NCBI GenBank assembly: GCA_964495745.1
Contig: CAZBYM010000001.1
Location: 1 to 32,911, forward strand
Direction: 5' to 3'
DNA: 32,911 nucleotides
Origin: an uncultured Chryseobacterium sp.
GTDB taxonomy: Bacteria > Bacteroidota > Bacteroidia > Palsa-965
The position numbers and the translations under genes are program-made. The notes under the pieces are model-generated. The model was not told the DNA's origin. It searched no databases and saw nothing but the letters and a program-made list of their open reading frames with translations. Within the stretch, counting starts at the first letter, position 1. Each line of letters opens with the position of its first letter. Of this stretch, positions 3,470 to 32,911 are shown in pieces.

Positions 3470-3666
3470 ACTAAAACAAAGGCTTGAGAATGGGGTGAGA
3501 AAGGCCGCTATTAACCGGCAATCGTGAATTACTGTTAAGAAACTGCACGATCCAAATTCCAACTTGCGAAACCACAAATTTCAGATTGACTCTTCCTTCG
3601 TGATGCGACCCCGACTGGTAAACGAGCCTTTTTCGATCTGAATTTCGGGGGCACTCGGCATTTTTC

Positions 3667-3708
3667 CCGTAATTCGAAAGTTAGACTTTAGAATTACGGT
3701 ATTATTTT
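3667..3708. repeat. 42-nt direct repeat, copy 1 (interrupted hairpin plus tattatttt tail), left flank of the ATPase gene
   Basis: Sequence ccgtaattcgaaagttagactttagaattacggtattatttt. It is 39/42 identical to 4903-4944. Outer stem ccgtaattc/gaattacgg, inner stem aaagt/acttt. Confidence 0.9.
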
Positions 3709-3709
3709 A

Positions 3710-3717
3710 TACATTTG
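3710..3717 (+). promoter_or_regulatory. -7 box TAnnTTTG (tacatttg) ending 4 nt before the ATPase ATG, implying a leaderless or near-leaderless mRNA
   Basis: The sequence reads tatacatttggtcaATG. It is a perfect consensus match sitting between repeat copy 1 and the start codon at 3722. Confidence 0.4.
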
Positions 3718-3721
3718 GTCA

Positions 3722-4900
3722 ATGATAGATCGCATTTATACTCCGCAACTCAAAAAACTCCTTCGGCTCTTTCCCGCAGTTGGACTTATTGGTCCGCGCC
3801 AATGCGGGAAGACCACGCTTGCTTTGCAGATGAAGAAAGATCTGCATGGAAAAGCTGTCTATTACGATCTTGAAGATCCTGCCGATAACAGCAAATTCGA
3901 CAATCCATTGCTGATCCTGAATCAACCGGATGCTAAAACCATCATTATCGATGAAATTCAGCGCCGACCAGAACTTTTTGCAATTCTCCGATCGGTGATC
4001 GACAAAAAAAGAAAACCCGGGCGGTTTCTTTTGCTTGGTTCTGCATCCCCTGAAATGATTCGTGGTGCTTCTGAATCTCTTGCAGGAAGAATCGCATACA
4101 TCGAAGCAACACCCTTTCTGTTTTCAGAGTTGTTTTCAATGGCTGACTCAGAAAACAAAAATTGGTTGCGCGGTGGATTTCCAGGAGCTTTGCTTGCAAG
4201 AAGCAATAACGACGCAAGAGCGTGGATGACCGCTTTCACGCGAACGTTCATTGAGCGCGATTTAAATACCCTGTTCGGAACTACATTCGAGCCCGCACTC
4301 ATGTTTCGTCTCTGGCGTATGCTTGCGCATCAGCACGGACAAATCTGGAATGCCGCTTCATTCTCAAAAGGTCTTGATACGAGTTCCGTAACCATAAATC
4401 GATACACGGATTATCTCGTTGGAGCATTCATGCTCCGCAAGCTCGAGCCGTGGCACGTAAATTCCCGGAAACGTCTTACAAAAAGTCCGAAGATTTACCT
4501 CCGCGATTCAGGGCTGCTTCATCATCTGCTTGGAGTTTACGATCGCAATACGCTGCTGAATCATTCTTCCATCGGCTATTCTTGGGAAGGCTTTGTTGTA
4601 GAACAGATTTGCGCCCTCTTGCCTGATACAATTCATCCGTTCTTTTATCGCACACACGATGGGGCGGAAATGGATCTTGTTTTGGTGAAAGGCATAAAAC
4701 CTGTTGCGTGTATTGAAATCAAGCTTACAACATCACCTTCTGTCAGCCGCGGAATGTCGCAAAGCATCGCTGACATGGGATGCAAAAGCAATTTCATCGT
4801 CACGCCAGGCACATACGCAGGATGGAAAATCCGGAAAGATATTTTCGTTTGCGGTCTGCAGGAATTCCTCGAAAAACATGTTTTGCCGGACAAATATTAA
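3722..4900 (+). CDS. AAA+ ATPase with a C-terminal DUF4143 / PD-(D/E)xK-like domain (COG1373-type)
   Basis: 392 aa with a Walker A motif GPRQCGKTT and a Walker B-like IIIDEIQ. The C-terminus THDGAEMDLVLV..ACIEIKL fits the D..ExK nuclease-fold pattern typical of this family. It is the only + strand gene between minus-strand neighbours. Confidence 0.85.
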   Translation: MIDRIYTPQLKKLLRLFPAVGLIGPRQCGKTTLALQMKKDLHGKAVYYDLEDPADNSKFDNPLLILNQPDAKTIIIDEIQRRPELFAILRSVIDKKRKPGRFLLLGSASPEMIRGASESLAGRIAYIEATPFLFSELFSMADSENKNWLRGGFPGALLARSNNDARAWMTAFTRTFIERDLNTLFGTTFEPALMFRLWRMLAHQHGQIWNAASFSKGLDTSSVTINRYTDYLVGAFMLRKLEPWHVNSRKRLTKSPKIYLRDSGLLHHLLGVYDRNTLLNHSSIGYSWEGFVVEQICALLPDTIHPFFYRTHDGAEMDLVLVKGIKPVACIEIKLTTSPSVSRGMSQSIADMGCKSNFIVTPGTYAGWKIRKDIFVCGLQEFLEKHVLPDKY

Positions 4901-4902
4901 TA

Positions 4903-4944
4903 CCGTAATTCGAAAGTTCAACTTTAGATTTACGGTATTATTTT
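4903..4944. repeat. 42-nt direct repeat, copy 2. Hairpin plus T-tract acts as a likely terminator for the ATPase gene (possibly bidirectional for dxr) and overlaps the dxr stop.
   Basis: Sequence ccgtaattcgaaagttcaactttagatttacggtattatttt. It starts 2 nt after the ATPase TAA, is followed by further t residues, and contains the dxr stop codon (4938-4940) and last codons. Confidence 0.85.
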
Positions 4945-6110
4945 TTGCCATTCTGAATGATCATCTCTGCAATTTCTCTTGCTGATTTGTCCGAATCGAT
5001 AAAGTCTTCGATCTTCTTCGGCACCGAGAAAGCAACATCCTGCATGGTCCTTTCAATCACCTCCGCAATCTGCAGAAATCCGATCTTATCATTCAGAAAA
5101 GCTGCAACAGCAACTTCGTTCGCTGCATTCATCACACATGCGCGATTTCCACCGTCTCTCATCGCATCGTAAGCTATTCCTAAACAAGAAAATGTTTGCG
5201 TGTCAACTTTCTCGAATGTTAAAGCAGGATATTTCATGAAATCAAATCGCGGAAAATCAGATTTCAATCGCGCTGGATATCCAAACGCATATTGAATCGG
5301 CAATTTCATATCGGGCAATCCCATTTGAGCTTTCATTGATCCGTCCTGAAACTGCACAATGCTGTGAATTATGCTTTGCGGATGAACAATTACATCAATC
5401 TGTTCCGGCTTCAGCGAGAAAAGCCATTTGGCTTCAATCACTTCAAGTCCTTTGTTCATTAACGTCGCAGAATCAATTGTGATTTTCGCACCCATCGTCC
5501 AGTTCGGATGTTTGAGTGCTTCTGCTTTTGTAACAGTTGCAAGTTGCTCGCGCGTCTTTCCACGAAACGGTCCGCCGGAAGCCGTCAGATAAATTTTCTC
5601 AATCGGATTTTCAAATTCTCCGGCGAGACATTGGAAAATCGCAGAGTGTTCTGAATCTACCGGATACAAATTCACCGCGTGCTCGCGAGCTGTTTTTGTA
5701 ACAAGTTCTCCAGCCACAACAAGCGTTTCCTTATTCGCAAGCGCAATTTGCTTCCCCGCTTTTATTGCAGCCAATGTCGATTTTAGTCCGGCGTAACCAA
5801 CAATTGCCGCCAGCACCATGTCCACCGTTTCCATCTGCACAACATCTGCGAGTGCTTCTTCTCCACCGTAAACTTTAATTCCTTCGTCAAGCAAAGCAGA
5901 TTTCACTTTCGCGAGTTTCGAAACATCATTGATCACCACCACATTCGGCTTGAACTTCAGCGCTTGTTCAATCAGCAAATCCGCATTGTTTCCTGCAGCG
6001 AGAATCTCCACGACAAATTCATCGGGATGCGCAGCAATAACTTCCAGTGCTTGCGTTCCGATTGAACCGGTTGAGCCGAGGATGGCGATGTGTTTTTGTT
6101 CTGAATTCAC
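4938..6110 (-). CDS. dxr: 1-deoxy-D-xylulose-5-phosphate reductoisomerase
   Basis: 390 aa. N-terminal IAILGSTGSIG NADPH-binding motif, LANKE, and the DSEHSAIFQC and NKGLE motifs of Dxr. GTG start at 6108-6110. Confidence 0.95.
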   Translation of the reverse strand: MNSEQKHIAILGSTGSIGTQALEVIAAHPDEFVVEILAAGNNADLLIEQALKFKPNVVVINDVSKLAKVKSALLDEGIKVYGGEEALADVVQMETVDMVLAAIVGYAGLKSTLAAIKAGKQIALANKETLVVAGELVTKTAREHAVNLYPVDSEHSAIFQCLAGEFENPIEKIYLTASGGPFRGKTREQLATVTKAEALKHPNWTMGAKITIDSATLMNKGLEVIEAKWLFSLKPEQIDVIVHPQSIIHSIVQFQDGSMKAQMGLPDMKLPIQYAFGYPARLKSDFPRFDFMKYPALTFEKVDTQTFSCLGIAYDAMRDGGNRACVMNAANEVAVAAFLNDKIGFLQIAEVIERTMQDVAFSVPKKIEDFIDSDKSAREIAEMIIQNGKK

Positions 6111-6516: not shown

Positions 6517-7382
6517 TAAAAAACAACATAATCCTGCGGATCCACCGGCGCTCCATTGTACCAAATCTCAAAATGCACATGCGGACCTGTAGAATGCTCT
6601 CCGGAATTTCCAATAATCGCAATCGGTTCTCCAGCCTTTACAAACTGTCCCGTCTTCTTGAGTAAAGCTGCATTGTGCTTGTAAACAGAAATCAGATTAT
6701 TCGAATGTTGTATTTGAATTACATATCCGTCTTCCGGATTCCATCCTGCAGAAATGATTGTTCCATCAAGCGTAGCTTTCACAGACTCATTTTCGCTTGA
6801 AGCAACATCAACTCCGAAATGCTCTTCTGCAAGATTGAACGAACTTGTAACCGAACCTTTCACAGGAGCAAAGAAAAAATATCCGCTGATTCCGGTTTTC
6901 TTCGTTACTCCAAGTGCCAGTGAATATTCATCGCCCTCTTCAATTTCATAGCGCAAGGCAGAATCTTCCGGCGAACGAGCATGATCAAGATCTCCGTAAT
7001 TCTTGGAAGTATCGGTTGGGTTTTGAATATTAACAGCCGTATCGTTTCCCTTTAAAATGTTGGTGAGATTTTCCAAATATTGTTGACGGGCCGTAGCTTC
7101 AAACATGAGCGAATCAGTTTTCTCATTCAGATCAATCATGTCTTGCTGCATTCCAACATCTGCGTAACCCGGAATGTATTCCCTAACAGGGGTGAACGCG
7201 ATCAAACTCACAACAATTGCAGTCATGACAATCGTTATCGCGGAAATTGCAACAAGTATTCCAAGTGGCGTTAGTGTAACCGAAACCCGCTCTTCGAACG
7301 TATCATCATCCATGACCACCATCCGGTAGCGAATGCGCAACCGGTCTTTCCAGGATTTCTTCTTTGGTGTTGTTGGACTCAT
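6516..7382 (-). CDS. M23 (LytM-type) family metallopeptidase with an N-terminal membrane anchor
   Basis: 288 aa with one TM segment (LGILVAISAITIVMTAIVVSLIAF). The C-terminal domain has HFGVD and GNSGEHSTGPHVHFEIW, the M23 zinc-ligand motifs. Confidence 0.85.
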   Translation of the reverse strand: MSPTTPKKKSWKDRLRIRYRMVVMDDDTFEERVSVTLTPLGILVAISAITIVMTAIVVSLIAFTPVREYIPGYADVGMQQDMIDLNEKTDSLMFEATARQQYLENLTNILKGNDTAVNIQNPTDTSKNYGDLDHARSPEDSALRYEIEEGDEYSLALGVTKKTGISGYFFFAPVKGSVTSSFNLAEEHFGVDVASSENESVKATLDGTIISAGWNPEDGYVIQIQHSNNLISVYKHNAALLKKTGQFVKAGEPIAIIGNSGEHSTGPHVHFEIWYNGAPVDPQDYVVF

Positions 7383-25573: not shown

Positions 25574-26971
25574 TCATTGGCAGATAGCAGGCAATTCAAT
25601 ATACCGCCCACGCGAAATTCTGAAGTACTGAGAATTAATTTCGCTGTCTTTCATAATTTCCCAGCGACGCAACACAAATTCGTCCGCACGCAAACGGTTT
25701 CTGTTATCATTCTCATTCATATCGTCAGGCGTAGCAATTGAAACCTGAATGCCGCTGTTACGATGCATCGAACCGCTGCGCAAAAGCGTTTCCATAGGGA
25801 AGGACCAGTCTGCCCACTTGAAGCACGATTTGTAATCAGCCTCATTCATCACAAATTTACTCCCCGATTTCTTGTGCGCTACGTTAATGAGTTGTTCCAC
25901 CTGTTCCGTCCGGGCCTTGTAATCCATTCCAACATCTGTGAATCTTCCAATGCGCCAGCCAATAATTAGTAGCAGCGAAACGACAATAAAAGATTGACTC
26001 AATTGCATTTCCCGACAAAGTGTAAAGACCAGAGGAATCAGTACGATTGGAATGAGCGGCAAATACATTCGCTCGAAATATGGAGTGAGAATCGGATCGT
26101 TCGTATGCGTGAAATTCACCACGAGAATGTGTCCGATGAAAAATAGTAGCGACACAAGTAATTGAACTTTCATTTTTCTCACAAGAAAAAATAAACTTGT
26201 CCACACTAGAATCAAAATCGGGATTGTGTACCACGTGAAGAAAAATTGGATTAATTCCCAATAGTATGCAGGGCGTAGTAGTTGTCTATAGGATTCGTTC
26301 CAGTCTGCCGTTGCAAGTCCCAATTTTCCGGCTTCGTATTCGGTAAGCATCAATTTCTTCGCAACATACCAGCCAGCAAACAGAAGAACTGAAATTATGA
26401 GGATCTTGATTTCCAACTTGCGTTTTTCCAATGCTGAATAAATCAAAGCGAAAGCAATTGGAATAAACAGCAACGGGTGAGCAAAAAGCGCCGTGACCAA
26501 CACTGCTCCGAAGAAAATCAAATCCCTCAGGTGGGACACTTTTCCCTGCGATAAATGCGAGTACAGCAAAATCACTAACGGAATTCCATACCAGATTTCG
26601 TACATCGGCGTGAACTGAATATGCAGCACGCCGAGTACATGAGTCAGAACAATTGCAATTCCAGCGCGACGATCTTTCAAATAATAAGTCGCATACAGGA
26701 ACAGAATGTAAAACCACAAAACCGCGTTAAGCGAATTGAGAATAAAAATCAGATTTAGTGAACCTCCTAGTTTGACTCCTATCCAAGGAAGAAATTGCGA
26801 GAACGCTAGAATGAACCGCTGATGTTCAATTCTGAAATTTTCAGAATTTGCTACGTGTAATAAATAATGCGCGCCGTCGGCCTGAAATCTTTCTTTCGCA
26901 AAAAGGATTGCGAAAACCGCCATGACAAAAAAGAACCATGTTGTCCACTTTGTGTAGGCGCCTTTCAACAT
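25574..26971 (-). CDS. Polytopic membrane protein with a C-terminal soluble domain (unknown family, GT-C-like topology)
   Basis: 465 aa with about 11 hydrophobic segments, then a ~110-aa hydrophilic tail. It starts 16 nt after the gpsA stop on the same strand. Confidence 0.65.
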   Translation of the reverse strand: MLKGAYTKWTTWFFFVMAVFAILFAKERFQADGAHYLLHVANSENFRIEHQRFILAFSQFLPWIGVKLGGSLNLIFILNSLNAVLWFYILFLYATYYLKDRRAGIAIVLTHVLGVLHIQFTPMYEIWYGIPLVILLYSHLSQGKVSHLRDLIFFGAVLVTALFAHPLLFIPIAFALIYSALEKRKLEIKILIISVLLFAGWYVAKKLMLTEYEAGKLGLATADWNESYRQLLRPAYYWELIQFFFTWYTIPILILVWTSLFFLVRKMKVQLLVSLLFFIGHILVVNFTHTNDPILTPYFERMYLPLIPIVLIPLVFTLCREMQLSQSFIVVSLLLIIGWRIGRFTDVGMDYKARTEQVEQLINVAHKKSGSKFVMNEADYKSCFKWADWSFPMETLLRSGSMHRNSGIQVSIATPDDMNENDNRNRLRADEFVLRRWEIMKDSEINSQYFRISRGRYIELPAICQ

Positions 26972-30119: not shown

Positions 30120-31634
30120 CTACTGTTTTTCAGGACGCATCTGCGGAAAGAACAACACATCCTGAATAGAAACATTGTTCGTCATCAACATCGCCAAACG
30201 ATCTATTCCGATTCCTATTCCAGCTGTTGGTGGCATTCCGTATTCCAGTGCACGTAGAAAATCGTGATCAATGAACATCGCTTCGTCATCACCACGCTCC
30301 ATCAATTTCACTTGCTCTTCAAAACGTTCGCGTTGATCAATCGGATCATTCAACTCGCTGTACGCATTTGCGATTTCCTTTCCGTTTACCATTAACTCAA
30401 ATCGCTCAACGAGCCCTGGTTTGCTGCGGTGTTTTTTTGTAAGCGGACTCATCTCCACCGGATAATCGGTGATGAAAGTTGGTTGAATATATTTTCCTTC
30501 GCACTTTTCCCCGAACAACTGATCGATCAACTTTCCGCGACCCATTGTTTTGTCGCAAGGAACATGCAATTTCTGACACGCTTCACGAAGCTGATCTTCG
30601 TTCATTTCAGTGACATCGACACCTGTGTGTTCTTTAATTGCATCATACAAAGTCACACGTGCGAAAGGTGCAGAGAAATTTATTTTCTGTTCTCCAACCG
30701 AAACTTCTGTTGTGTCGTGCAGCGCGAGAGCAACTTTCTCCAACATCGTTTCGCACGTCTTCATCATCCACTCGTAATCTTTGTACGCTACATAAAATTC
30801 GAGTACAGTGAATTCAGGATTGTGTGTACGATCCATTCCTTCGTTGCGGAAGTTGCGGGAGAATTCATACACGCCATCAAATCCGCCAACGATAAGTCGC
30901 TTCAAATATAATTCGTTTGCAATTCTCAAATAAAACGGAACATCTAACGCATTGTGATGTGTTGTAAACGGACGTGCTGCCGCTCCGCCGGGAATTGATT
31001 GCAAAACTGGAGTGTCAACTTCCAGCAATCCAAGATCGTTCAAAGATTCGCGAATGGAATTGATCATCTTCGTGCGCTTCACAAACGTATCTTTCACAGA
31101 AGGATTCACTACGAGATCCGCATAACGCTGACGATAACGGAATTCAAGATCCGTTACTTCATCATGCGCTTGTCCCGATTCATCCACTTTCACAATTGGC
31201 AAAGGGCGAAGTGCTTTACTCAACAAGCGCAATGTTGTAACGTGAATTGAAATTTCTCCTACTTGCGTTGTGAAAACGTATCCTTCTACGCCAATGAAAT
31301 CTCCGATGTCTAGCAATTTCTTGAAAACAGAATTATACAAATCTTTGTTTTCCCCAGGACAAATTTCATCGCGATTAACATACAATTGAATACGACCAGT
31401 AGCATCTTGCAATTCTGCGAATGAAGCTTTTCCCATCACACGCACGCCCATGAGTCGACCTGCAATTGCCACTGCCTTGTAACTTGTTTTATCGCGTTCG
31501 TAATTTTCTTTGATATCCTTCGCCGTAACGTTTACCTTAAATTCTTCTGCCGGATACGGTTCAATTCCAAGTTCGCGAAGCTGATCAAGTTTCTGACGAC
31601 GAATAATTTCCTGTTCGGAAAGGTGCTGGCTCAT
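30120..31634 (-). CDS. lysS: Lysine--tRNA ligase (class II)
   Basis: Internal ATG (31632-31634) of track ORF 30120..31778 gives MSQHLSEQEIIRRQKLDQLRELGIEPYP... It has class II motifs (FRNEG, GIGIGIDRLAML) and an OB-fold N-domain. Confidence 0.95.
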   Translation of the reverse strand: MSQHLSEQEIIRRQKLDQLRELGIEPYPAEEFKVNVTAKDIKENYERDKTSYKAVAIAGRLMGVRVMGKASFAELQDATGRIQLYVNRDEICPGENKDLYNSVFKKLLDIGDFIGVEGYVFTTQVGEISIHVTTLRLLSKALRPLPIVKVDESGQAHDEVTDLEFRYRQRYADLVVNPSVKDTFVKRTKMINSIRESLNDLGLLEVDTPVLQSIPGGAAARPFTTHHNALDVPFYLRIANELYLKRLIVGGFDGVYEFSRNFRNEGMDRTHNPEFTVLEFYVAYKDYEWMMKTCETMLEKVALALHDTTEVSVGEQKINFSAPFARVTLYDAIKEHTGVDVTEMNEDQLREACQKLHVPCDKTMGRGKLIDQLFGEKCEGKYIQPTFITDYPVEMSPLTKKHRSKPGLVERFELMVNGKEIANAYSELNDPIDQRERFEEQVKLMERGDDEAMFIDHDFLRALEYGMPPTAGIGIGIDRLAMLMTNNVSIQDVLFFPQMRPEKQ

Positions 31635-31651
31635 AGGTGATTTTTGTTGGG

Positions 31652-31659
31652 CAAATGTA
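31652..31659 (-). promoter_or_regulatory. -7 box TAnnTTTG (tacatttg) upstream of lysS
   Basis: The minus strand reads ccctacatttgccc 17 nt upstream of the lysS ATG, a perfect consensus match. Confidence 0.45.
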
Positions 31660-31669
31660 GGGATAAGAC

Positions 31670-31696
31670 GCGAGAAGCGAGAATCAGCCGCGAGAA
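31670..31696 (-). repeat. Three copies of heptamer ttctcgc (minus-strand reading) over the -35 region of the lysS promoter
   Basis: Plus strand: gcgagaa gcgagaa tcagcc gcgagaa. Minus strand: ttctcgc ggctga ttctcgc ttctcgc, then 10 nt, then tacatttg. Confidence 0.8.
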
Positions 31697-31747
31697 AAAG
31701 GTCAATCGCTGATCTAGAAATATAGATTTGACGTATCTTTCTACAAC

Positions 31748-32164
31748 ATGAAGCACATTGCTTATATAGTAGTTGCAATTCTGTTTTGCAGTTTCATTTA
31801 TTCTACAGATACAGTTGAGTCATCTGATCCTGACTTGTTAATTGGTAAGTGGAAGTATGCGGCAGCTTATTACAATGGCACAATAGACACTGGCCGGGTA
31901 GAATTCAGTGAGTTGTATTATGAGTTCCGGGCGGACAACACTTGCGAACTCAGCTGGAAGAATGCGGTTGATACCACCATTTACCATATGATCGGCACTT
32001 ACAAAATGAATGGGAAACGTGATAAGTTGACCATGTACTATGGTAAGAACAAACCCCATACCGTGCATATCCGAGAGTTAACTGCCACAACATTAGTTTT
32101 TGGCGATCCTGCGAACAAAAAACGCAATTTACCTTCGCTTTATTCGCGTTTCGAAAAAATGTGA
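31748..32164 (+). CDS. Small secreted lipocalin-like protein (hypothetical)
   Basis: 138 aa with a signal peptide and an LIGKWKY..Y..F..D motif, as in bacterial lipocalin-like domains. It is divergent from lysS. Confidence 0.5.
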   Translation: MKHIAYIVVAILFCSFIYSTDTVESSDPDLLIGKWKYAAAYYNGTIDTGRVEFSELYYEFRADNTCELSWKNAVDTTIYHMIGTYKMNGKRDKLTMYYGKNKPHTVHIRELTATTLVFGDPANKKRNLPSLYSRFEKM

Positions 32165-32308
32165 AAGTCGTGTAATGGTATGCGGCATAAAACTTTCAAC
32201 TTCTATAGCAGGATCTATGGAGGCGTCCTTGAAGGTATTGCGCAAGAATAAATCCCAAACAGAACTTCATTTGGGTCGAATTAAGTAATCATAAATGGGC
32301 GTTGAGCT

Positions 32309-32659
32309 TTACCGCACCAACGACGCCAACGGAATATTCAACTTCTCGTGCAGATTCCGCACCATTTCCAACGTTAGTTTTCTCCTTCCTGAAAAAACAT
32401 CACTCACTCGACTCTTATATCCGAGAATTTCGCCAATATCCTTTTTGGTAAGACCTTGCTGTTCCATTCTATACTTGATGGCTTCAATTGGATCAGGAAC
32501 ATCAATTGGGAACATGCGTTCTTCGTAGTCCTCAATCAACAGTGCCAGAAGTTCGGCTTCATCTCCATCCTTAGTTCCCGCTTTTGCGTGAAACACTTTG
32601 GAAAAACGAGCCATATACTTCTTGTATTGTTTTATTGACTTGATCTTTGCGAGTTTCAT
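32309..32659 (-). CDS. higA: HigA-type antitoxin-like XRE-family HTH protein (COG5499-like), with no toxin gene visible
   Basis: 116 aa. The N-terminal helical part (EAELLALLIEDYEE) plus the C-terminal HTH (LTKKDIGEILGYKSRVSDVFSGRRKLTLEMVRNLHEKLNIP) match the HigA layout as I remember it. Confidence 0.65.
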   Translation of the reverse strand: MKLAKIKSIKQYKKYMARFSKVFHAKAGTKDGDEAELLALLIEDYEERMFPIDVPDPIEAIKYRMEQQGLTKKDIGEILGYKSRVSDVFSGRRKLTLEMVRNLHEKLNIPLASLVR

Positions 32660-32692
32660 CGTTGCACTAAATTACGACTTGTTGTTGAAATT

Positions 32693-32902
32693 AACGCCTG
32701 CGGCAGCATGGAATTTTTTGTTCGTCCATTTAGCCCAACGCTCCCGCGTTGGGCTAAATGGGTTTCGCTCCTCCGGAGCTTGGTATATTAGTCAAGCGAG
32801 TTTGGGCATTTCTGAACCTCGTAGAGGTGAAACATTGCTAACCACGGACCTCGTCCGTGGTTAGCAACATCAAACAAAAAATTCCATGCTGCCGCAGGCG
32901 TT
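32693..32902. other. Non-coding nested inverted-repeat element: 30-bp perfect terminal arms enclosing two perfect 15-bp hairpins (retron-like msr/msd ncRNA candidate or MITE)
   Basis: Arms 32693-32722 and 32873-32902 are exact reverse complements. Hairpins lie at 32726-32761 and 32835-32867. The 73-nt centre carries small palindromes. There is no credible ORF. Confidence 0.6.
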
Positions 32903-32911
32903 TTCAAACCT

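Follow-up and report, generated by a model that had tools for sequence, protein, structure and literature searches.

A perfect palindromic 210-bp element with an Acido-Lenti-1 module at a decayed toxin-antitoxin locus in Bacteroidota

Several kinds of small palindromic element are already known in bacteria, including repetitive extragenic palindromic (REP) sequences with their REP-associated tyrosine transposases (RAYTs), TIRtrons and miniature inverted-repeat transposable elements (MITEs), and Acido-Lenti-1 (RF01687) is likewise an established, curated Rfam family. Acidobacterial TIRtrons consist of Y1 transposase genes between long inverted repeats, and tail-to-tail dimers are common among REP families (PMC3733652). 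Y1 transposases of subclass 1.2 are reported mainly from Cyanobacteria and Bacteroidetes and are said to lack typical terminal structures or hairpins (PMC6006769). The 2010 seed alignment of Acido-Lenti-1 holds 89 members, among them Lentisphaera tandem arrays with a 69-200-nt period (Weinberg et al., PMC2864571), and Acido-Lenti-1 non-coding RNAs have recently been called beside Tannerella protease genes (bioRxiv 10.64898/2026.02.09.704811). Here we describe a 210-bp element at positions 32693-32902 of contig CAZBYM010000001.1, which is complete at 32,911 bp and is referred to below as the window. The initial annotation had read this element as either a retron-like RNA or a MITE. Our analysis indicates that it is probably a selfish, non-coding palindromic DNA repeat of the REP/MITE class, built around an Acido-Lenti-1 module.

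Structure of the element and family membership of its left half

The three perfect nested inverted repeats proposed at the outset were all verified (Table 1). Their stems comprise 61 base pairs rather than the 60 first counted, since hairpin A gains one pair and closes a 4-nt instead of a 6-nt loop. The two small palindromes noted in the center are present as well. Both halves of the element follow one plan, in which an arm is succeeded by 3-5 nt, a 15- or 16-bp hairpin, (T)GTTTC and a 4-5-bp hairpin; the halves occupy opposite strands such that the small hairpins face one another. Hairpin B repeats the layout of hairpin A with a different sequence, one that is not scored as belonging to the family. 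Beyond the arms, the flanks themselves constitute a short palindrome (TTGAAA/TTTCAA). The arm sequence occurred 0 times across 100 shuffles of the window, and the RNA fold of -132 kcal/mol departs from shuffled controls (z = -16.5 for the + strand, -15.2 for the - strand), as does the DNA-parameter fold of -85.6 kcal/mol (z = -17). The lack of any shuffle match, together with fold z values between -15 and -17, excludes a chance origin, and an equally good fold on both strands is expected of a DNA palindrome. The sole open reading frame (ORF), an 88-aa frame at 32598..32864 that had been listed previously, runs straight through the palindromes and yields a translation without homologue. The element is non-coding. 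It has the attributes by which MITEs are recognized, namely terminal inverted repeats (the 30-bp perfect arms), a length of 210 bp and no coding capacity. Its G+C content is 50%, versus 42% for the window.

Table 1. Positions of the features discussed, in window coordinates unless a locus is named
Feature	Position	Strand	Description
Left arm AACGCCTGCGGCAGCATGGAATTTTTTGTT	32693..32722		30 nt, 100% complementary to right arm, 150 nt between
Right arm	32873..32902		30 nt, exact reverse complement of left arm
Outer imperfect extension TTGAAA	32685..32690		Pairs with TTTCAA 32903-32908, 3-nt bulge on left (folds, alignment)
Hairpin A	32726..32761	+	Stems 32726-32741 / 32746-32761, 16 bp perfect, 4-nt loop TCCC
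RF01687 Acido-Lenti-1 match	32734..32780	+	Central hairpin, CUAA, linker, small hairpin; model positions 1-46/46
Small hairpin GCTCC-TCC-GGAGC (CTCCGGAG hairpin)	32767..32779	+	Equals family's second small hairpin (alignments)
Second small hairpin ACCTC-GTA-GAGGT	32816..32828	-	On minus strand follows hairpin B and TGTTTC, mirroring left half; weak R1 match, 7.2 bits
Hairpin B	32835..32867	-	Stems 32835-32849 / 32853-32867, 15 bp perfect, 3-nt loop
Terminal nine bases TTCAAACCT	32903..32911		Two separate assemblies stop at 32911
Orphan higA, HTH_3 antitoxin	32309..32659	-	34 nt from element; higB directly upstream in relatives
Terminator-like hairpin CCCAAATGAAGTTCTGTTTGGG, then ATTTATTCTT	32254-32275	-	34 nt past higA stop, before convergent lipocalin gene
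Palindromes and half-site pair	L149 3555-3625; L152 2575-2640; window 32838-32864		GTAACCAA(A/T)TTGGTTAC in L149 and L152 versus TAACCA...TGGTTA in window
Full IS5/IS1182-like IS, DUF772 + DDE_Tnp_1	L008 2114-3479		Sits in hairpin loop
MITEs, 156-209 bp	L096 ~3560-3715; L120 ~911-1120; L013 ~315-470; L012 ~7031-7190; L045; L011 ~4765-4960		
147-aa Y1 genes	L075 1197-1640; L084 2949-3392; also L020, L108, L097, L047, L011, L059, L017, L095	- (L075, L084)	

Inspection of the left half reveals its family. RF01687 is the only Rfam match in the whole window at threshold, where it scores 37.2 bits against a gathering score of 37, a narrow margin, with E values of 1.7e-6 for 31500-32911 and 4e-5 for the whole window. 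When 31500-32911 was scanned against Rfam 15 at E <= 10, weak sn668 and mir-87 matches were the only others returned. The inner 8 bp of hairpin A (32734-32741 / 32746-32753) and the CTAA tail (32754-32757) constitute the module core, and the further hallmarks of the family, a linker and a 5-bp GC-rich hairpin, follow. The 8-bp stem (CCCAACGC/GCGTTGGG) differs from the consensus (CCUAGCGC/GCGCUAGG) by two compensatory double changes. The stem of hairpin A reaches 16 pairs because TTAG (32730-32733) base-pairs with the CTAA tail.

Given the thin Rfam margin, relatives were collected for an independent model. The resulting covariance model, R1, was built from 88 acidobacterial copies and is limited to 8 base pairs because the RNAalifold consensus recovered the central hairpin only. 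R1 scores 47.7 bits (E about 1e-11) on window positions 32682-32790, its sole strong match in 65 kb comprising the window and 30 kb of related loci, and nhmmer likewise matches the module to the family at 35 bits (E 2.4e-10). By these sequence criteria, the left module is a true copy of the Acido-Lenti-1 motif. The arms were considered as the family's upstream small hairpin, which found no support: an nhmmer profile of the upstream part of the family gives no match to the left arm, such that homology is confined to about 32729-32789 and excludes the 30-nt arms. An integron attC site was also considered and set aside, for GCCCAAC/GTTGGGC fit the R''/R' boxes, but these lie only 8 nt apart and the family consensus is GCTGGGC. 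Elsewhere in the window, R1 gives a weak match at 26477-26546 on the minus strand (16.9 bits, E about 0.005), within a 465-aa ORF without a Pfam hit, which is probably noise.

Acido-Lenti-1 as a dispersed repeat associated with Y1 transposase genes

A degenerate core pattern matched at least 120 stretches of GTDB genomes. Among the matches listed, most stretches are from Acidobacteriota, with some from Chloroflexota, Verrucomicrobiota, Eremiobacterota, Binatia, Dormiibacterota and Methylomirabilota, and several metagenome-assembled genomes carry at least 5 loci each, some as inverted pairs 117 nt apart. The family plan comprises a small GC-rich hairpin, a T-rich spacer of ~20 nt, the 8-bp hairpin with CTAA, ~8 nt and a second small hairpin. 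Copies occur singly, in tandem or as inverted pairs, with many per sampled genome, and crude ORF calls indicate no orientation bias relative to neighboring genes. The tag at the hairpin foot is CUAA, CUAC (= GTAG), CUAU or CUGA in the seed members and TTAG/CTAA here; in the 120-stretch sample this tetranucleotide was preset by the search pattern. Viewed from the opposite strand, the module is TTAG followed by a hairpin, or GTAG followed by a hairpin in some seed members, and resembles GTAG-tagged REPs.

The family is also entangled with DDE-type insertion sequences (IS). Its small GC-rich hairpins serve as insertion targets, where an IS and its MITEs sit in the loops and the loop sequence is duplicated (CTTTAG, CTGAAG, CTTGAAG or TCC). 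Several MITEs of 156-209 bp, with three unrelated terminal-repeat types among them, enclose a module, and one of these types is shared with the full DUF772/DDE IS. The module-carrying acidobacterial MITEs are bounded by IS-type terminal inverted repeats, and apparent target duplications are found in those that were read (L096, L013, L012/L045).

A second association links the family to Y1 transposases. At two loci, opposed modules lie ~550 nt apart with a 147-aa IS200-like Y1 transposase ORF between them (PF01797, 87-89 bits), and a tblastn search identified Y1 transposase genes in 10 of the 120 sampled loci. Eight of these 10 genes are within about 45 nt of a strict-pattern module, and the remainder are 128-370 nt away. 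Where both sides can be read (L075, L084, L097 and L108), inverted module repeats of 38-77 nt bracket the Y1 gene at about 40-45 nt from its ends; that is to say, a hairpin repeat stands in inverted orientation around a Y1 gene in Acidobacteriota. The proteins carry DHLH or NHVH, WQ and YIRNQAEHH, the last representing the Y---Q--HH signature, and so match subclass 1.2 (PMC6006769). An arrangement of this kind, of repeat and Y1 gene, is what defines REP/RAYT REPtrons and TIRtrons. The link between Acido-Lenti-1 and Y1 transposases appears to be new, as it was not found stated in the literature mentioning the motif.

The higA locus and the contig end

The encoded proteins of the window are core chromosomal ones (an RseP-like protease, Dxr, the ATP synthase operon, GpsA, LysS and a T9SS-sorted protein; T9SS, type IX secretion system), and together with homologues named Bacteroidota they place the contig in a Bacteroidota chromosome. 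A contig bearing its LysS and lipocalin genes originates from Hainich groundwater, and a 101-aa version of the HigA protein is recorded in NCBI and ENA for a contig of exactly 32,911 nt. The HigA-like gene next to the element exists as first annotated, and the proposal that the element occupies the slot of its toxin partner holds, because relatives carry higB exactly there. In these relatives the gene order uvrC-higB-higA is conserved, with HigA proteins 84-88% identical to that of the window. The toxin gene is intact in loci L149 and L152, split into 65-aa and 30-aa pieces in another related contig, and reduced in L150 and L151 to a remnant of ~17 codons. The element fills this position in the window, 34 nt from the higA start, and DNA similarity to the relatives ceases at that start. 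Across the last 350 nt, neither HigB nor the conserved C-terminus of UvrC could be detected. Based on this absence and the order conserved in L149-L152, uvrC is expected on the minus strand beyond 32911. A minus-strand open frame at the contig end (GLKTPAAAWNFLF...) was considered as UvrC and rejected, since it does not fit the conserved C-terminus AKxKLVWEYF. A Y1 gene starting at ATG 32886 (MLPQAFSN) was rejected likewise, as the conserved M.HTY..N..H.VFSTK is missing.

In the relatives, two GTAACCAA(A/T)TTGGTTAC palindromes (form GTAACCAAATTGGTTAC) lie between uvrC and higB. The first of them overlaps the stop codon of uvrC, and the second is directly followed by TACATTTG or TATATTTG. These palindromes are likely HigA operators. 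Hairpin B contains the only TAACCA...TGGTTA inverted pair of the window, with half-sites 13 nt apart rather than 3, and a relationship between this pair and the putative operators is suggestive but weak. A search on both strands from 32150 to the contig end (760 nt) found no Bacteroidetes -7 box (TAnnTTTG); because no such box lies upstream of higA, the gene is probably transcribed through the element and may depend on read-through from upstream.

Three further observations concern the surrounding genes. HigA is 84-88% identical to the proteins of the relatives versus only about 33% for the neighboring lipocalin-like protein (L149-L153), such that HigA either is much better preserved than the sequence around it or has been exchanged. 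In a tblastn search, the last ~33 aa of UvrC (L149, L150 and L152; TAKKLLSKFKSIKQLKEKSLEEISEVIGPAKAG) align with the first 28 aa of HigA (MKLAKIKSIKQYKKYMARFSKVFHAKAG, 32576-32659), at an E value of 6.6e-4 in a tiny database that may reflect lysine-rich noise. A search with UvrC for a continuation past 32911 led to L154, an unrelated locus on another Bacteroidota contig, where uvrC is followed at 719-781 by a long AT-rich imperfect palindrome (AACCACATAAGACACATAGGACATAAGG...CTTATGTGCCTTATGTGGTT) whose sequence is unrelated to that of the element.

The right arm ends 9 nt before the contig end. A second contig, L148 (717 nt, ENA assembly ERZ1292634), corresponds to window positions 32195-32911 and carries the identical element without a single difference. 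Position 1 of L148 and the last position of the 32,911-nt contig are the same base, and look-ups with the neighboring proteins returned only short contigs that end earlier or at base 32911. The common end suggests a branch in the assembly graph at the border of the element, arising from a repeat or from a strain difference.

Competing explanations and relation to known systems

Taken as a selfish repeat of the REP/MITE class, the element joins two hairpin modules tail to tail between 30-bp inverted repeats and is a heterodimer in REP terms. Its hairpins would be recognized in single-stranded DNA and copied or moved in trans by a Y1 enzyme; alternatively, a DDE transposase could recognize the 30-bp arms, as in the acidobacterial MITEs with the same module. 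This copy would have arrived by transposition and come to lie between uvrC, expected past the contig end, and the orphan higA, in the slot held by higB in the relatives. If higA is transcribed through it, the RNA would adopt a 30-bp duplex with two side hairpins and might act incidentally as a processing site or insulator. No host function would be required to account for its presence.

A number of results weigh against this explanation. A single copy is known, and neither the rest of the 33-kb contig nor 30 kb of related loci contains another. GTDB genomes and JGI metagenomes gave no exact match to the 30-nt arm, the hairpin A and hairpin B patterns have no match in viral contigs, and blastn of the element against plasmids and phages gave no match. 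No clear target-site duplication is visible, as only TT is found on both flanks and the right flank is 9 nt long. The window contains no Y1 or DDE transposase gene, and the tail-to-tail arrangement with long perfect outer arms is absent among the acidobacterial copies examined. The arms and hairpin B display no detectable kinship with the family (hairpin B has no RF01687 match at E <= 10), so that the link to it covers only about 60 of the 210 bp. Perfect stems could also come from local template switching. In those sequence collections, neither multiple copies nor a parent IS with the same ends was found. A metagenome scan with the pattern AGCCCAACGC....GCGTTGGGCT picked up ordinary terminators for the most part, along with a few Acido-Lenti-like hairpins and nothing resembling the 210-bp element, and querying with the 56-aa reading of the element for spurious ORFs translated from other copies produced no candidate. 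The MITE option of the initial annotation is nevertheless near the mark: inverted repeats bound a small element without coding capacity, and its module lies inside true acidobacterial MITEs, whereas no clear target duplication, second copy or matching transposase was found in the contig and the collections searched.

A bolder version of the selfish-repeat explanation takes Acido-Lenti-1 to be the DNA substrate (REP or terminal repeat) of subclass 1.2 Y1 transposases and the window element to be one end of an active system. The repeated unit, possibly with a Y1 gene, would then start past 32911 and explain the shared assembly break, higB would have been displaced, and hairpin B would carry half-sites resembling HigA operators. 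We regard this whole chain as unlikely, if still worth entertaining.

Unlikely as well is an origin in place. Here the palindrome would have formed when higB was lost, through template switching or inverted duplication around an existing REP-type hairpin, and would be an immobile deletion scar. The single known copy, the lack of a visible target duplication and the perfection of every stem would all suit such an event, as would the position of the element exactly where the relatives show stepwise decay of higB from intact to split to ~17-codon remnant. The TAACCA...TGGTTA of hairpin B also equals the half-sites of the palindromes upstream of higB in the relatives, but this match extends over just 6 nt and has a chance probability of roughly 0.05-0.1. 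Moreover, no HigB or UvrC remnant is detectable in or beside the element, the alignment to the uvrC-higB spacers of the relatives is poor, and the closeness of the module to acidobacterial copies still demands an incoming repeat.

A functional structured RNA, either a trans-acting small RNA (sRNA) or a cis-acting terminator, insulator or processing element of a uvrC-higA transcript, is improbable. Rfam files the family as an sRNA and its seed alignment covaries, but a DNA hairpin recognized by a transposase yields the same covariation. In favor of an RNA are the extreme + strand fold (z = -16.5), the probable read-through of higA across the element, and the GGCG then UUUU that follow the right arm on the + strand; the terminator scan, in turn, lists no site within the element. 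The copy number of the family, its tandem and inverted arrays, its targeting by IS and its position flanking transposase genes all speak for behavior at the DNA level, and the copies show no orientation bias toward neighboring genes, as far as crude ORF calls reveal.

A retron msr-msd RNA gene, whose reverse transcriptase would lie just past the contig end on the + strand, is very improbable. Its appeal derives from geometry, since a long stem closes the structure, the G at 32724 is unpaired, hairpins lie inside and one stem-loop stands 5 nt from the right arm, at a border beyond which the contig holds no sequence. Beyond this geometry we found no positive support. The Rfam 15 scan that recovered Acido-Lenti-1 matched no retron family even at E <= 10. 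The supposed msr belongs to a multi-copy repeat family rather than being one RNA per reverse transcriptase, and that family accompanies Y1 transposase genes instead. In a crude motif search, none of 116 family copies had a downstream ORF containing YxDD, nor was YxDD followed by VTG on either side, with one upstream ORF carrying YIDD. Four related loci (L149-L152) place uvrC, on the opposite strand, beside this spot, and the fold is equally good on both strands, as in a DNA palindrome. Nested perfect inverted repeats and an unpaired G are insufficient to call a retron.

The faintest prospect is an assembly artefact, to which the position 9 nt from the contig end, the low coverage of the sample assembly that gave the 717-nt contig (cov 3-4) and the halt of both contigs at the same base might point, but a simple fold-back is unlikely because the 150-nt interior is non-palindromic and the flanks are not mutual reverse complements, fold-back of adjacent sequence could not produce short 30-nt arms around such an interior, the differently assembled 32,911-nt and 717-nt contigs agree exactly, and the left module matches a natural family.

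Several consequences follow. An Rfam sRNA whose function has been unknown since 2010 behaves, in the genomes sampled, like mobile DNA of the REP type and may need re-annotation, and the recent Tannerella calls are touched by this reading of the family. The range of the family now includes a groundwater Bacteroidota, in an unusual, fully perfect tail-to-tail form. The locus documents decay of a toxin-antitoxin pair, with the toxin lost and a repeat gained, and repeats of this kind may interrupt metagenome assembly, to judge from the end that both contigs share.

Compared with described systems, the element shares with retron msr-msd genes the flanking inverted repeats around hairpins and an unpaired G after the left arm. 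In contrast to these, its palindrome is symmetrical on both strands and matches no retron RNA family, its left half comes from a multi-copy, Y1-associated repeat family, synteny predicts uvrC next to it, and no sign of a reverse transcriptase was found. Bacterial MITEs (Correia/NEMIS, ERIC and the acidobacterial IS5/IS1182-derived ones) resemble it in being intergenic and non-coding, in its length of 210 bp with 30-bp perfect terminal repeats, and in the long RNA hairpin that it would form if transcribed; the acidobacterial MITEs of 156-209 bp even enclose the same module. Unlike MITEs, it shows no demonstrable target-site duplication, other copy or parent IS with the same ends in the collections searched, and its arms are unrelated to the three acidobacterial terminal-repeat types.

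With REP/REPIN-RAYT systems and TIRtrons (PMC3733652; PMC6006769), the family shares a short hairpin, which appears to keep a tetranucleotide tag at its base, multi-copy occurrence in dimers and clusters, use as an IS target and inverted copies around an IS200-like Y1 gene. As in REPINs, two such hairpins are paired in the window element, and the dimer can fold up as a single long hairpin. It departs from REPs and REPINs in that its two inner hairpins differ in sequence, making it a heterodimer, and in that its long perfect pairing stems from the 30-nt outer arms rather than from the REPs. The Y1 enzymes associated with the family show Y---Q--HH (subclass 1.2) rather than the YxxxNP of classical RAYTs.

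For Acido-Lenti-1 itself (RF01687, PMC2864571), the full 46-nt model is matched with the compensated 8-bp stem, the CUAA tail, the linker and the 5-bp hairpin. Relative to the family, the stem is lengthened to 16 perfect pairs, a 30-nt arm stands in place of the upstream small hairpin, the host is a Bacteroidota at 42% G+C, and the copy is embedded in a larger perfect palindrome. What is new is the link of an Rfam sRNA to Y1 transposases and an unusual perfect dimer in Bacteroidota at a decayed toxin-antitoxin locus, a modest addition to systems that were already known.

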